DNA of 64,000 nucleotides from Candidatus Marinacidobacterales bacterium (GTDB taxonomy: Bacteria > Acidobacteriota > Vicinamibacteria > Marinacidobacterales > SMYC01): the NCBI GenBank assembly GCA_965224085.1, contig CBDCYI010000011.1, positions 480,001 through 544,000 on the forward strand, written 5' to 3'. This document shows positions 12,352-28,760 of this stretch, piece by piece. The notes beneath the pieces were generated by a model. It saw nothing but the letters and a program-made list of their open reading frames with translations, did not search any database and had not been told where the DNA came from. Each line of letters starts with the position of its first letter. Within the stretch, counting starts at the first letter, position 1. The position numbers and the translations under genes were made by a program.

Positions 12352-13101
<750 letters not shown>

Positions 13102-13119
13102 TAATCTCGGCGGTGTTCT

Positions 13120-13810
13120 CGGTTTCCGCGGTTCTCTCCGGATGGATCCGAGATCGCTTTCAGCGACAACTACGACGGCAACACCGACGTCTACGTTGTC
13201 GCCACGACCGGCGGTGAGCCACGCCGGATCACGTATCACCCTCTCCCCGACCGTGTGCTCGACTGGACCCCGGGCGGGGCACGGCTGCTCTTCGCCTCAC
13301 GTCGCAAAAGTGGCTCACAGCGATTCAGTCAGCTCTACACTGTGGCTGCGGCTGGCGGGCTACCCGAGAAGCTCCCCGTTCCCTACGGGGAGTTTGGAGC
13401 GTTGTCCACCGACGGACGCTCGCTCGCCTTCACGCCTAAGAGCCGAGGCTTCCGCAATTGGAAGCGCTATCGCGGGGGTATGGCTCCGGAAATTTGGCTG
13501 ATCGATCTCGAAAGCCTCGACGCGCGCAACCTCACCAACAGCGACGCGAACGATGCCCAGCCGATGTGGCACGGCTCGACTCTGTACTACCTCTCCGACC
13601 GCGGCGCCGGCGAGCGCTCCAACATTTAGGCCCTGGACGTCGCGAGCAATGACACTGTTAATGATATGCGCCAGATCACGCAGTTCGCCGATTTCGATGT
13701 GACTTTCCCCGCTAGAGGGCCCAGCGATCTGGTTTGCCAGGCAGGGGGCCGACTCTACCGTATGCCGCTCGAGACGGAGACGCCCGAAGAAGTCGATGTC
13801 GACCTCGTGA
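13120..13810 (+). pseudogene. Tricorn protease (S41) N-terminal propeller fragment
   Basis: SPDGSEIAF..NYDGNTDVYVV; WKRYRGGMAPEIW; premature TAG at 13627; truncated. Confidence 0.75.
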
Positions 13811-14700: not shown

Positions 14701-15022
14701 CGTTTGTTTCCTCCGCTGGCTACTTTGCAAAGGCCGTACCAGGCCCTTCGCGCTTCACCGCCGTCGAACCGTCCCGTTCGTCCTTTCCTGGGGACGAGGT
14801 CGCCCACGAATAAGGACGGACGCCGGGGTTCGCCGAGCTTCAAGCATCTCTCGAACGGGCGCGCCCAGGGCCATGCGAACCGCTCGAGCAGGTGAGATCG
14901 TGGGTGAAACAGTAGGTAAAACCGGGTAAAATTCGTCCACCGCAGAGCGGAAACCGGGAGAAGATGGCTGGTGTGCAAAGCCCGCGACGGTGTTACCCTT
15001 TGCACTCCAAGGAGGAGGAATC

Positions 15023-16411
15023 ATGGCGAACCACCAGACGCGCGTCTACGACGAGGTGTTGGAGATGCTCTCTGACGAAGAGAACCCCACGCCTCTGGTG
15101 CGGCTGAGGCGGGTCGTGCCCCTGGCGCAGGCCAAGGTCTACGCCAAGCTGGAGTGGTACAACCCATTCGGCTCCGTCAAGGACCGGATCGCGGCCAACA
15201 TGATCCGCGACGCCCGGGAGAAGGGGCTCCTGCGCGAAGGCCAGCAACTGGTCGAGCCGACCAGCGGGAACACGGGTATGGGTTTGGCGATGATGGCCAA
15301 CGCCCAGGGTTACCAACTGTCGACGCCCCTGTCCAAGTCCATACCGGCGGAGAAGCGAGTCATACTGCGCTTCTTCGGCTCGGCGGTCGAGGAGTTCGAA
15401 GACAGTCTCTGACCGGATCCACGGTCCCCGGAGGGGGCCATTGCGCGGGCCACGGAGTTGGCCGCTGGGCCCAAATTCCACATGCTCAACCAGTACGAGA
15501 ACGAGGCTAACGTCGAGGCCCACATCCACACGACCGGCCCCGAGATCTGGCGCCAAACGGAGGGCAGGATCACCCACTTCGTCGCCAGTCTGGGCACTTG
15601 CGGGACCATCACCGGCAACGGCGGCTTCCTGAAGGGCAAGAACCGGAACATCCAAGTCATCGGCGTGCACCCCGAGGAGGGCCACGACATCCCGGGAGTG
15701 CGCTCGATGCGTCAGCTGAAGCACACCAAGCTCTTCCGGCCGGACAAGTACGACACCCTCGTGGAGGTCAAAAACCGGGAGGCCTACGACATGTGCCTGC
15801 GTCTGGCCCGAGAGGAGAGCCTCATCGCCGGACCCAGCTCGGCCCTCGCTCTCGTCGGCGCCTTGAAGGTGATCGAGGACCAGCCGGACGCCGTGGTCGT
15901 CGTCATCTTCCCGGACAACGTTTTCAAGTACGCCTCCTCATTCGAGCGGCACTTCCCCGATGTCCGGGCTGCCCCCTCGGCCGACGCGCGCCCGGGCGAG
16001 CCCAGCCCGAAGGAGCAGATTCTAACTACGCTGGTGGAGAACTCGCGCAACCCCCACAACACATGGGAGGTGGGAGACTTGCGCGCGGCGCTCGAGGGTC
16101 GGGACGCGCGGCCCTTCCTCCTCGACGTGCGGTCAGCGGAGGTCTACGCGAAGCAGCACGTGGCAGGGGCGGTGAACATCCCCTTCGAGGAGTTGGGGGA
16201 GCGTCGGGACGAGCTGCCCGAGCAGCGTGAAAGCTCGATCGTCACGGTGTGCAACCGCGGCAACCTGTCGATCTCGGGGATGCTCTTTCTGCAGTCGCTC
16301 GGCTACCAGAACGTCCGGAGCCTTAACGGCGGGACGATCGCTTGGGCCGAGCAGGGGCTGCCGACCAACAGCAACAGTCAGCAGCCAGCCGTCTGCGATT
16401 CTAATGGTTAG
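15023..16411 (+). CDS. PLP-dependent cysteine synthase family protein fused to a C-terminal rhodanese; in-frame UGA at codon 130 (putative selenocysteine)
   Basis: AGGAGGAGG RBS; KLEWYNPFGSVKDR, EPTSGNTG, NQYEN, GTCGT, GPSS; rhodanese LDVR...CNRGNLS; ORFs 14990 and 15458 share a frame separated only by TGA 15410-15412. Confidence 0.8.
15423..15439 (+). promoter_or_regulatory. Bacterial SECIS-like hairpin
   Basis: GGTCCCC-GGA-GGGGGCC starting 11 nt after the UGA, with a G-led apical loop at +18. Confidence 0.55.
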
Positions 16412-18729: not shown

Positions 18730-19070
18730 CGGACGCGACGTCGCGATCAAAGTCCTTCCTGAGGAGTTCGTGAAGGACGACGAACGATCCGCGAGATTCG
18801 AGCGGGAAGCCAAACTTCTCGCCGCGTCGACGAAGCACACAGCGTGCTCTAGCGTCTGGACGAGCTGGCCGAGACGCGATACGTCTCACCGATCCAGAGC
18901 GCGAACGTCTACGCGGGCCTCGGAGACTTGGACAGGTTCTTCGAGTGGATGGAGCGCGCGAACGAAGAGCGAGCGAGTTGCTGCTACGCGCGTGTTTTCG
19001 GTGGGGCGAGGATGTCGAACGAGACCCGCGATTCGCCGAGCTGCTGCGCCGCGTCGGACTCGAAGAATAG
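18730..19070 (+). pseudogene. Internally deleted Ser/Thr kinase-TPR gene
   Basis: DVAIKVLPEEF...RFEREAKLLA joined to YVSPIQSANVYAGLGDLDRFFEWMERA...DPRFAELLRRVGL. Confidence 0.65.
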
Positions 19071-19120
19071 AGCCTGCTGTCCCCGCGGTCTTTCTGGGGT
19101 ACGGGGCCAAAGAGAGACTT

Positions 19121-19152
19121 GCCATCAAGCTATAATGATGGCGTGCTATAAT
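19121..19152 (+). promoter_or_regulatory. TA promoter and operator: GCCATCA-N8-TGATGGC inverted repeat and extended -10 TGcTATAAT, 6 nt before the ATG (leaderless)
   Basis: Directly visible. Confidence 0.65.
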
Positions 19153-19158
19153 AGTGGT

Positions 19159-19428
19159 ATGAATCAAATGACCACGACCGTTCGCCTTCCCGAGGATCTG
19201 TACGAAGCTTTGCGTAGACGTGCATTTGAAGAGCGGCGCCCAGTGGCCGAGCTCATCCGCGAGGCGCTGCGACGGTTTGTGGACCTGCCACGCGAACCCT
19301 CGCCCTTGCCAGAGCTCGAGTCAGACCCATTCTGGAAGGCGGTCGGTACTATCGATGGCGGGCCGAGTGACGAGTCGATCGAGCATGACCATTACCTGTA
19401 CGGTGCACCGAAGAAGGGCCGCCGGTGA
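19159..19428 (+). CDS. CopG/RHH antitoxin (VapB-like)
   Basis: TTVRLPEDLYEALRRRA...VAELIREAL; EHDHYLYG tail; GTGA overlap with the toxin. Confidence 0.85.
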   Translation: MNQMTTTVRLPEDLYEALRRRAFEERRPVAELIREALRRFVDLPREPSPLPELESDPFWKAVGTIDGGPSDESIEHDHYLYGAPKKGRR

Positions 19429-19823
19429 GAGTCTTCGTCGACACATCGGCTCTCGTCGCACTCGCTAACCCTTCGGACGGCATGCACGCTCCTGCAAAAA
19501 GCTGCTTGAGGGACCTGAACAAAGCTGACTTGATAACGAGCGACTATGTGCTCGACGAGATGTTGACTCGCTGGCTCACGACGGGCCGGGCGCGGCGCGG
19601 CTTCGAGTTTCTCGACGCCATCCTCGAGAGCCCGCGGTACACGCTTGCCTTCGTTGACCGCACGGTCTTCGACCTCGCGAGGCAGCGCGCCGAAGCTTAT
19701 CAAGAACACCGCCTATCGTTCACCGACTGCACCAACGTCGTCTTCGTTCAAGAGATGCGCCTCGACGGGATCTTCGCATTCGACGATGGCTTCTCGCGCG
19801 TCGGACAAAACGTCTTGCCTTAG
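19425..19823 (+). CDS. vapC: PIN-domain toxin (VapC family)
   Basis: VFVDTSA...YVLDE...SFTDC...FAFDDGF acidic tetrad. Confidence 0.9.
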   Translation: MRVFVDTSALVALANPSDGMHAPAKSCLRDLNKADLITSDYVLDEMLTRWLTTGRARRGFEFLDAILESPRYTLAFVDRTVFDLARQRAEAYQEHRLSFTDCTNVVFVQEMRLDGIFAFDDGFSRVGQNVLP

Positions 19824-27281: not shown

Positions 27282-28760
27282 TCAGCGGATGTTCTCTCGA
27301 CGTCGGACTCTCTCGAACATGACCTCGAGCTCTTCTTGATCGATGTATCCGTCGTCGTTTCTGTCCATCCGCTCGAAGCGTTGTCGGATGCGTTCGGGAA
27401 GCTCGTCTCGGCTGAGGCGACCGTCGCCATCTTCGTCGCGCTCCAGGAACCGCTGCATGCGCATTCCGCTCGCCATCCCTTCGAGCTCATCCTCGTCGAT
27501 GAATCCGTCGCCGTTCGCATCGAGCCTCCCGAAAATCCTCCCCATCCGCTCGGGGACCTCATCCCGGCTGATGCGGCCGTCCCCGTTCACGTCCAGGTCA
27601 CGAAGTCGCCCTGCCATGCCGCCCCCGCCCCGTCCCGGAAAGGTTCCCGTGCGTCTTCCGCCGTCCGGGTCTCGTTCCAGAGAAATCCGGAATTGCTGAG
27701 TGACGGGAACGCAAAAGGTCTCGGCATCGTCGCAAGCAAAGTAGCGAATCGTCGCTTGGAGCGGAGTCTCCGATTGCCAAGCGTCGACGTCGATAAGAAA
27801 TTCACGTGGATCGCTGTCTGCTTCGACGTCGACTTTGGGACCGGTGCCGGAAAGGGGTGATGCCGCTCCTTTTGGAAGCTTCAGCTCGAAATGCAATGGA
27901 TCGACGAGGTTGTTCCAGTGCACGCCGTAGATCGGATCGAGCCGGAAACCGAGATAGAGTTTTCCAGCCCCCCGGCGCAGAAGATCTCGATCGGCTTCAG
28001 CGCGCAACTTCACATAGAACGGGACTTTGTCCTCGGTCGAGACCGGTTCCACCACGAGGGGCTGCATTCCCCGGGGGAGCTCGATCGACGGCACAACTCC
28101 CTTCGCCGCCTGCTCCCGCGGCGGGGGAATTTCCAGATCCAGGTCAGCGATCCGAGTCGGATTCTCGACCGGTCCCACCAGCCTGTCCAAGTCCTCGCGT
28201 AGTCCTTCTGGGTCGCTCCACATGCGTTTGTTCGCAAGCCTTCCGTCCGGATCGATGATGAACTCGGCGTTCGAGGCATCCCCCAATGCGTGCTTGAGGT
28301 CGTTCGACATCGTGTCGCTAATCCACGGGATCCGGGACCCCAGCGTTCGTTTCGCCTCTTGAACCTGCATGAGGCGCTCTTCGAGTGTATAGGGCGTCAC
28401 GTAGCCATGGAGCCCGGGATGGGCGAGGGCTTTGTAGATGTAGTAGAACTTCACGCCCTTCGGTGCGTAGTCTTCGTAAACCGTCTCCAGACCGGGGACG
28501 TTTCTCTCGAACGGAGGTCACGTGAGGCAGCCGAAGACGAGAACCGAATAACTTCCCTTCAAGCTCGCGAGCTCGAGCGCGCCGCCGTCCTCGTCGTAGG
28601 CCGAGAGTGCGGGCATGGGATCGCCGATGGCGGGAGGCGCCGCCTCGAACCGCTCTCTTCTCGACTGCATGAAGTCATTTTCGAGAGCGGCGGGCTGAGC
28701 GAAAGCGAGCGTTGAGGCTCCCAAATAGAGGGCCACAATGAAACCGTTTGAGCGAAGCAT
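27282..28760 (-). CDS. Secreted deiodinase-like/thioredoxin-fold selenoprotein (CxxU) with C-terminal EF-hands
   Basis: ORFs 28518-28760 and 27282-28454 are in frame across TGA 28518-28520: VFGCLT-U-PPF; GGAGG RBS; four DxNxDG EF-hand loops. Confidence 0.85.
28478..28503 (-). promoter_or_regulatory. Bacterial SECIS-like hairpin
   Basis: AAACGTCCCC-GGTCT-GGAGACGGTTT at +15 to +40 after the UGA; GGTCTG apical motif as in the E. coli fdhF SECIS. Confidence 0.65.

Follow-up and report, generated by a model that had tools for sequence, protein, structure and literature searches.

In Mycobacterium tuberculosis the cysteine synthase CysM works with CysO, Mec+ and MoeZ (PDB 3dwg and 3dki), a route to cysteine which uses the thiocarboxylate of a carrier protein. 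Sulfur-transfer proteins are also found among bacterial selenoproteins, and Table 1 of a 2026 review (PMC13188914) gives 119 prokaryotic selenoprotein families, including five rhodanese forms and a MoeB form; no cysteine synthase, pyridoxal 5'-phosphate (PLP) enzyme or PF00291 entry was found among all 119 families of that table. Here we describe a gene at 15023..16411 on the forward strand of a 64,000-nucleotide (nt) stretch of DNA, referred to throughout as the window (positions 480,001 to 544,000 of contig CBDCYI010000011.1, assembly GCA_965224085.1), from Candidatus Marinacidobacterales bacterium, an acidobacterium. The gene joins a cysteine synthase-like domain to a rhodanese domain and has one in-frame UGA, at codon 130, for which an earlier note made from the letters of this DNA had proposed decoding as selenocysteine (Sec). 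We conclude from comparative analysis that this is very probably a genuine selenoprotein gene and that its UGA is almost certainly read as Sec, so that the encoded enzyme, cysteine-synthase-like and with a rhodanese domain, represents a family which the current catalogue lacks. It is highly likely that the locus as a whole is best explained as an uncatalogued CysM-like PLP-rhodanese selenoprotein, decoded by SelA, SelB, SelD and tRNA-Sec with the help of a hairpin, and perhaps acting through a relay.

An in-frame UGA in place of an invariant cysteine

Read directly from the sequence, the gene is a single frame of 462 codons in which the TGA at codon 130 is the sole interruption (Table 1). The ribosome-binding site, the PLP lysine and the TSGNTG (residues 80-85), GTCGT (residues 191-195) and CNRG motifs that had been picked out earlier are all present, all of these protein motifs being intact in the translation with TGA as U, and the strong Shine-Dalgarno block is largely kept in the two congeners with DNA covering that region (G003 and G002). 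Under translation table 11 the frame splits into open reading frames (ORFs) of 140 and 317 residues, and the C-terminal ORF alone has neither the PLP lysine nor the TSGNTG substrate loop. Full-length homologues carrying Cys are 430-500 residues long, with 58-78% identity, while the two closest database proteins (87-88% identity) have 319 and 323 residues and start just past the stop and have, therefore, been cut short by public gene callers. Selenoproteins are prone to mis-annotation as truncated genes or pseudogenes, and these two entries are examples of this. An NCBIfam scan of the read-through protein matched no selenoprotein-specific model.

Column 130 is Cys in all 116 full-length homologues and never Trp (consensus LCPAPGAPEGAIA), so the motif which the earlier note had given for the homologues was right, as was its supposition that the UGA replaces a conserved Cys rather than a variable residue. 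When 41 related genomes were searched, three congeneric species (G002, G003 and G004) proved to have the gene, each match having one TGA inside it, and there was no match in G001, the fourth other genome of the genus. In an alignment of the DNA the TGA of all three falls on this codon; its 3' flank of 36 nt is identical among the congeners except for one synonymous CGG/AGG change. One of these loci (L018, in the single-contig 9.2-Mb assembly of G002) has a 1-nt deletion within a C run of the N-terminal part, equivalent to about 15121, and its protein match starts only at residue 33; this may be a homopolymer assembly error or a real frameshift.

More widely, 15 of 401 genomes sampled from the phylum had a match at E <= 1e-100, and the equivalent of codon 130 was TGC in 13/13 PEGAI-bearing loci other than the window's own (genes with Cys here are hereafter Cys forms, as opposed to the TGA-bearing Sec forms). 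A degenerate DNA pattern, in which only the TGA and those bases of the P-x-P-x-x-P-E-G-A-I-A codons that are not degenerate were fixed, then gave 26 hits in genome records, of which 23 were true homologues with an in-frame TGA and 3 were chance matches, and 54 hits in metagenome contigs, 52 of them true homologues (30 complete on both sides). The genome records with Sec forms are mostly labelled as Myxococcota metagenome-assembled genomes (MAGs), the others as Acidobacteriota, Planctomycetota, Spirochaetaceae and Acidimicrobiia, labels which for some MAG records may reflect wrong binning (one being a 585-bp contig). The TGA at this codon is thus found in other genomes, as the earlier note had suggested looking for, in the three congeners and in both sets of pattern matches.

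The upstream halves of the Sec forms show no damage, and the start codon, about 129 codons 5' of the TGA, is conserved among them. For eight pairs of Sec forms, dN/dS was 0.059-0.315 upstream of the TGA and 0.098-0.278 downstream of it, with synonymous divergence (dS) among such pairs of up to 1.45, which is saturated. By these comparisons both halves flanking the TGA are under purifying selection as coding sequence, and the worry raised at the outset that the window is rich in pseudogenes does not apply to this gene. Nor was TGC or TGT seen in other data, an outcome which the earlier note had listed as adverse: contigs from runs of three other studies (one of which may be that of the source sample) cover the TGA with zero differing letters.

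The source genome has the means to decode such a codon, with selA (550 bits), selB (365 bits) and selD (280 bits) all above the curated cut-offs and a tRNA-Sec (74 bits, anticodon tca), so that each of selA, selB, selC and selD is present. In addition selA was found in 5/5 other Sec-form genomes tested and in 4/4 congeners; it was found also in 5/5 Cys-form genomes tested, and the Sec machinery is therefore necessary and not discriminating. Its use to tell Sec from Cys forms was rejected for that reason. The second Sec gene of the window, to which the earlier note had pointed at 28518, is real: it encodes a secreted-looking protein of the thioredoxin fold, with matches to AhpC-TSA (2.9e-09), Redoxin and, weakly, T4_deiodinase and with C-terminal EF-hands, and under table 11 it is broken into ORFs of 80 and 390 amino acids. 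The note had named four kinds of observation that would speak against a selenoprotein, concerning the residue in the homologue column, other genomes, the sel genes and the letters themselves, and none of them was made.

A conserved hairpin follows the UGA

The predicted Sec insertion sequence (SECIS) is a hairpin which begins 11 nt past the TGA, where the earlier note had seen GGTCCCC pairing with GGGGGCC; its location stands, but another register fits better than the one proposed for it, 7 base pairs closed by a triloop. RNAalifold on 58 distinct related sequences gave a consensus in which columns 20-23 pair with 28-31 in a 4-bp stem closed by a tetraloop, mostly GGAG and otherwise CGAG, UGAG, GGAA or AGAA. 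When the two lower pairs and the bulged U are included, this tetraloop register has 94.0% of cells paired over the 58 sequences, compared with 87.9% for the triloop register, for which there was no covariation and which was set aside as fitting worse. At stem pair 21/30, 50 sequences have CG, 4 have UA, 1 has GC and 3 have another combination, indicating compensatory changes, and the covariation score of the tetraloop register was reached by 0/500 shuffles. The minimal SECIS of E. coli fdhF is built in a similar way: a bulged U separates two lower pairs from a short upper stem, which ends in a tetraloop led by G.

Conservation around the hairpin separates the two forms of the gene. At third codon positions +4 to +9 the 25 Sec sequences show 92-100% conservation and the 13 Cys sequences 46-62%, and over codons +10 to +18 conservation in the Sec forms is no higher than in the Cys forms. 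Residue +5 is Ala in 115/116 Cys forms and Ser in 16/18 Sec forms, a replacement that swaps a G-G clash for a U-G pair or a bulged U; as the change from Ala to Ser puts U, in the stem or as the bulge, where there had been a G, the protein sequence at this position appears to have been adjusted to fit the RNA of the hairpin.

The geometry also agrees with what is expected of a bacterial SECIS (bSECIS). According to the criteria listed in the review (PMC13188914), the loop has 3-9 nt with G in its first two positions, the stem at least 4 bp, the distance between UGA and loop is 16-37 nt and the minimum free energy (MFE) is <= -7.5; the window hairpin has a loop of 4 nt with G at positions 1-2, an upper stem of 4 bp, a spacing of 17 nt and an MFE of -13.3 kcal/mol, and so lies inside all four limits. 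The SECIS-like geometry claimed by the earlier note thus holds, but in DNA so rich in G+C its stability taken alone is within chance. Although no fold of the 27-, 36- and 61-nt contexts has a lower energy than the hairpin, its energy compared with dinucleotide shuffles gave z = +1.13, -0.14, -1.55 and +0.12; folding energy was accordingly dropped as evidence for a SECIS and conservation used instead.

Those shuffles are one of several results that weigh against a selenoprotein decoded in this manner. At the same site a fold of <= -7.5 kcal/mol is reached by 10/13 Cys-form genes as well, owing to the quasi-palindromic codons of GAPEGA, and the hairpin by itself therefore discriminates poorly. 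The covariation comes from one pair, broken in 3/58 sequences, lower stem pair 18/32 is unpaired in 17/58 sequences, and in one Myxococcota-type sequence the 36-nt MFE structure uses a different 5' strand. A search of Rfam with 15300-15600, at E up to 10, matched no family. One metatranscriptome run contains two identical short contigs (15677-15831 and 16226-16411), both downstream of the TGA, which may be DNA carry-over; stretches of the gene that they leave uncovered are not evidence. The selenoprotein claim itself rests on comparative sequence evidence, from which we infer the incorporation of selenium.

These points bring in the possibility that this is not a selenoprotein at all, the TGA being either a true stop (in a recent pseudogene, through a sequencing error or in a split gene) or a codon read through as Cys or Trp without selenium. 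Such a reading could draw on the single substitution that leads from TGC to TGA, on a hairpin energy that is ordinary for its composition and on the 1-nt deletion in the C run upstream in congener G002, but it has to accommodate a TGA kept in dozens of sequences as diverged as given above with frames intact on both sides, synonymous sites locally frozen in the TGA forms only and identical letters in the contigs of three other studies. It is also difficult to square with a C-terminal piece that alone would be without the PLP lysine and the TSGNTG loop, with homologues that have Cys and never Trp, and with the full Sec machinery of the genome. We consider it highly improbable, and the comparative data come close to having refuted it already.

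The folding of the Cys forms has a further side to it. Over the columns equivalent to 15421-15444, hairpins of -3.9 to -13.6 kcal/mol are often possible in the Cys-form loci L022-L034. The self-complementarity of the GAPEGA codons may have made this site ready in advance for a SECIS to evolve, a clean case of predisposition through the codons of a protein motif; if true, this could explain the same change from Cys to Sec in genes now found in several phyla.

Enzyme class and position of residue 130

The PLP domain matches E. coli CysM (2bht) at 4.3e-61 by sequence and with a Foldseek template modelling (TM) score of 0.90 on the target, and M. tuberculosis CysM, at 1.2e-41, is more distant. The hallmarks of the PALP fold (PLP lysine, TSGNTG substrate loop and glycine-rich phosphate loop) are present, and the arginine R227 of IPGVR has as its aligned counterpart in E. 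coli CysM the arginine of IPGIR, which we take to have a role in the acceptance of thiosulfate. NCBIfam models were matched below their cut-offs (NF008735 at 272.2 against 413 bits, TIGR01138 at 271.1 against 394.2, TIGR01136 at 270.8 against 344.15 and TIGR01139 at 237.8 against 350.95) and because the CysM, cysKM and cysK scores are all of this kind the protein is not filed as a canonical CysM. In the rhodanese domain, C410 and G413 are invariant in 77/77 aligned sequences.

Compared with E. coli CysM and with two paralogues from the source genome, the loop that follows strand 121-125 is extended by 4-5 residues, and it is in this form that the insert which the earlier note had described as absent from classical CysK and CysM is borne out. 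Cys/Sec130 lies in the lengthened loop, where E. coli CysM has Val. In the AlphaFold2 (AF2) model (mean confidence, pLDDT, 87.7) residue 130 falls within loop 126-138, and P136 of the same loop aligns with M119 of CysM. For CysK, M120 has been described as belonging to the movable domain and lying where the active site opens, at 9.7 A from PLP in the closed state (PMC7948407), and since P136 corresponds to CysM M119 and this in turn to CysK M120, residue 130 is probably at the mouth of the active site, on a loop of the mobile domain. A second family-specific invariant Cys, Cys193, lies in the phosphate loop GTCGT, at a position that is Thr in E. coli CysM (GTTGT) and Gly or Ser in the paralogues (GTGGT, GTSGT).

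One of these paralogues (G000:C11:1656147-1657055, reverse strand) is CysK/CBS-like, with a 499-residue open frame scoring 333 bits to cysKM, and has Cys-Pro at the aligned loop position, without the 5-residue insert.

A possible sulfur relay

UGA 130 is very probably decoded as Sec by SelA, SelB, SelD and tRNA-Sec under the direction of the hairpin inside the coding sequence, with Sec130 replacing a Cys which is invariant in the fusion family and absent from classical CysK and CysM. In the mechanism that we propose, Cys410 would take up sulfane sulfur, for example from thiosulfate, and Sec130 would carry it as Se-S(H) to the PLP-bound aminoacrylate; alternatively, Sec130 might resolve a mixed (seleno)disulfide or an S-sulfocysteine-type product. 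The Se-S bond would afterwards be reduced by a cellular thiol system, and Sec in place of Cys would make the exchange steps faster. As a specific mechanism, this sulfane-sulfur/redox relay between Sec130 and Cys410 is put forward tentatively, with somewhat less than an even chance of being correct. The intramolecular persulfide/selenide relay of the earlier note is likewise tentative. In its boldest form the proposal would make this the first fold-type II PLP selenoenzyme, whose mobile-loop Sec passes rhodanese sulfane sulfur to aminoacrylate as Se-S(H), or cleaves an S-sulfo or persulfide product, so as to form cysteine from thiosulfate with neither free sulfide nor a carrier, at a site where GAPEGA codons were pre-adapted for a SECIS; this combination of claims we regard as rather doubtful.

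Some observations count against the relay too. The relay presumes that residue 130 comes near Cys410 and PLP, and the two further CysK/M-like paralogues of the source genome mean that the enzyme of the window need not be a housekeeping cysteine synthase.

A redox switch is another role that Sec130 could have, in which it would form a reversible selenenylsulfide with C193 or C410 and so gate the active-site entrance. This would make use of C193 as the second family-specific invariant Cys and of the probable place of residue 130 on the mobile-domain entrance loop, and it would be in keeping with the catalogue (PMC13188914), in which redox proteins make up most of the bacterial selenoproteins; that an intact rhodanese site is invariably fused to the enzyme, however, suggests sulfur transfer and a function beyond regulation alone, and we think the switch distinctly unlikely. 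In a fusion of cysteine synthase and rhodanese that is widespread and uncharacterised, the Sec draws attention to a family-specific Cys as important for catalysis, and so the residue pair 130 and 410 offers concrete targets for testing.

Gene neighbourhoods and a possible carrier-protein route

The neighbours of the gene within the window (DUF5916, a LigB fragment, dienelactone hydrolase, a ribbon-helix-helix (RHH) and PIN pair, and PD40) are uninformative. At the Myxococcota-type Sec loci the recurrent neighbours are short-chain dehydrogenase/reductase (SDR) genes, at 8 loci, and flavin monooxygenase-like genes, at 3 loci, with no evident link to the fusion gene.

The surroundings of the Cys forms in the phylum sample are more suggestive, the fusion gene being followed by a Prok-JAB gene in 8/13 loci and by a ThiF gene in 8/13. 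The row in G407 (L073, 3944-8343, reverse strand), consists of the fusion gene, Prok-JAB, ThiS, ThiF with rhodanese, Rrf2 and a HesB/IscA-type Fe-S assembly gene, and by analogy looks like a CysO/Mec+/MoeZ-type set with two rhodanese domains. Besides L073, operon-like rows of Cys forms were noted at L023-L027 and L031-L033. Cys-form genes beside JAB, ThiS and ThiF-rhodanese genes point to a carrier-protein route, which tells against a relay that does without one.

The protein could accordingly be a selenoprotein in a pathway of the CysO/CysM/Mec+/MoeZ type, in which the PLP domain would condense a ThiS-like thiocarboxylate with aminoacrylate, and Sec130 and Cys410 would make or resolve an acyl-persulfide on the C-terminus of the carrier at the mouth of the active site. 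The neighbourhoods in the Cys forms, including the row of G407, speak for this, and the Sec-containing MoeB listed in the 2026 catalogue (PMC13188914) is a precedent for such chemistry. The source genome, however, yielded no CysO/Mec+/MoeZ-type set in searches with Pfam PF14464 and PF02597: the sole Prok-JAB match (22.9 bits, below the cut-off) turned out to be RadC, and the two genes of the ThiS family adjoin MoaE and ThiG. JAB or ThiF neighbours were found at 0/26 Sec-form loci within short flanks (1.5-5 kb), and the PLP domain is nearer to the CysM of E. coli than to that of M. tuberculosis. Prok-JAB genes are present somewhere in 5/5 other Sec-form genomes. Taking these together we judge the carrier pathway unlikely, for both the condensation and the acyl-persulfide step, and retain the relay from Cys410 to Sec130 as the preferred, if tentative, mechanism.

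Evolution of the Sec forms and their absence from the catalogue

In a FastTree tree of 134 rows the Sec forms are interleaved with the Cys forms, so that 4 changes of Sec label are needed, at least 3 of them forced by the starred branches. An approximately unbiased (AU) test on 58 rows (18 Sec forms with 40 of the 116 Cys forms) was compatible with a single Sec clade (p 0.559), and on the same rows the tree constrained to a single Sec clade was 4.09 log-likelihood (lnL) units better. With the AU test set against the 4 changes of the FastTree tree, we make no claim on how many times Sec arose. A single origin would in turn imply transfer between phyla.

The statement in the earlier note that cysteine synthases are not among known selenoprotein families agrees with Table 1 of the catalogue and with our searches of the literature. 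Full-text searches for selenoprotein or Sec together with cysteine synthase returned no paper describing one, although supplementary tables might hold an entry, and cysteine synthase is not mentioned in the main text of the deep-Sep and GOS papers. The family would bring a PLP enzyme of central metabolism into a catalogue in which redox proteins of the thioredoxin fold predominate. As Sec forms turn up repeatedly both in contigs from marine metagenomes and in MAGs with the labels Myxococcota, Acidobacteriota and Planctomycetota, the family bears on the use of sulfur and selenium by those communities.

Other features of the window

The coordinates of the gene, its hairpin and the second selenoprotein gene are collected in Table 1. 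Upstream, the LigB dioxygenase ORF in the region 12439..13501 (forward strand) covers profile positions 29-176 of 269 only, and the next, overlapping ORF (13049..13501) has no Pfam match; the LigB gene may be frameshifted, which would fit the remark of the earlier note on pseudogenes. Downstream, at 18928..19823 (forward strand), adjoining genes for an RHH (CopG-like) protein and a PIN-domain protein are likely to be a type II toxin-antitoxin pair.

Table 1. Positions in the window of the features of the fusion gene, of the predicted hairpin and of the second selenoprotein gene.
Feature	Position	Strand	Basis
Shine-Dalgarno-like AGGAGGAGGA	15010-15019	+	Direct reading; ends 3 nt ahead of ATG
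Coding sequence of the predicted 462-residue selenoprotein (CysM-like PLP domain and rhodanese)	15023..16411	+	ATG 15023; stop TAG 16409-16411
PLP-dependent fold type II PALP domain, residues 17-298	15071..15916	+	Pfam PF00291, 6.9e-63
PLP lysine K53 (SVKDR)	15179-15181	+	Motif in translation
UGA codon 130	15410-15412	+	Context EDSL-U-PDPRSPEGAIARA
SECIS hairpin, predicted	15423-15439	+	GGTCCCC/GGGGGCC, starting 11 nt past TGA
Hairpin, tetraloop register	Lower pairs 15423-15424 with 15438-15439; bulged U 15425	+	RNAalifold and pairing counts
Hairpin, upper stem and loop	15426-15429 with 15434-15437; loop GGAG 15430-15433	+	Tetraloop register
Hairpin, alternative register	15423-15439	+	7 bp with triloop GGA
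Rhodanese domain, residues 352-443	16076..16351	+	Pfam PF00581, 8.5e-16, 58.7 bits against cut-off 22.2
Rhodanese active-site Cys410 in CNRGN	16250-16252	+	CNRG = residues 410-413
Second selenoprotein gene	27282..28760; TGA 28518-28520 in GCLTUPPF	-	AhpC-TSA/redoxin matches

Comparison with known systems

The window protein shares with the CysM of E. coli and Salmonella (2bht, 2bhs, 2v03, 2jc3) the fold-type II PLP domain, the PLP lysine, TSGNTG and the IPG(V/I)R arginine, and differs from it in the longer loop with the predicted Sec130, in GTCGT rather than GTTGT, in the fused rhodanese and in the use of selenocysteine itself. With the M. tuberculosis system it has in common a homologous PLP domain (1.2e-41) and the fact that some of its Cys-form relatives sit with Prok-JAB, ThiS and ThiF-rhodanese genes; unlike that system, the source genome and the Sec loci examined are without these partners, and the rhodanese is fused to the synthase.

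The hairpin resembles the consensus bacterial SECIS model, as given in the legend to Fig. 2 of PMC13188914, in its G-led 4-nt loop, 4-bp stem and 17-nt spacing. It is unlike that consensus in being very short and rich in G+C, with SelB binding that is predicted, in having a sequence largely set by the codons of the conserved (G/R)(S/A)PEGA, and in a register which, within the family, shifts by one nucleotide between variants.

Lastly, the catalogued rhodanese selenoproteins (forms 1-5) and Sec-MoeB, as listed in PMC13188914, are like the window protein bacterial sulfur-transfer selenoproteins with Cys homologues. As entered there, they have their Sec in the rhodanese or MoeB domain (UxxS, UxxG, CxU or UxxxxU), whereas in the window protein the rhodanese keeps its Cys (CNRG) and the predicted Sec is in the PLP domain (LUPxP).

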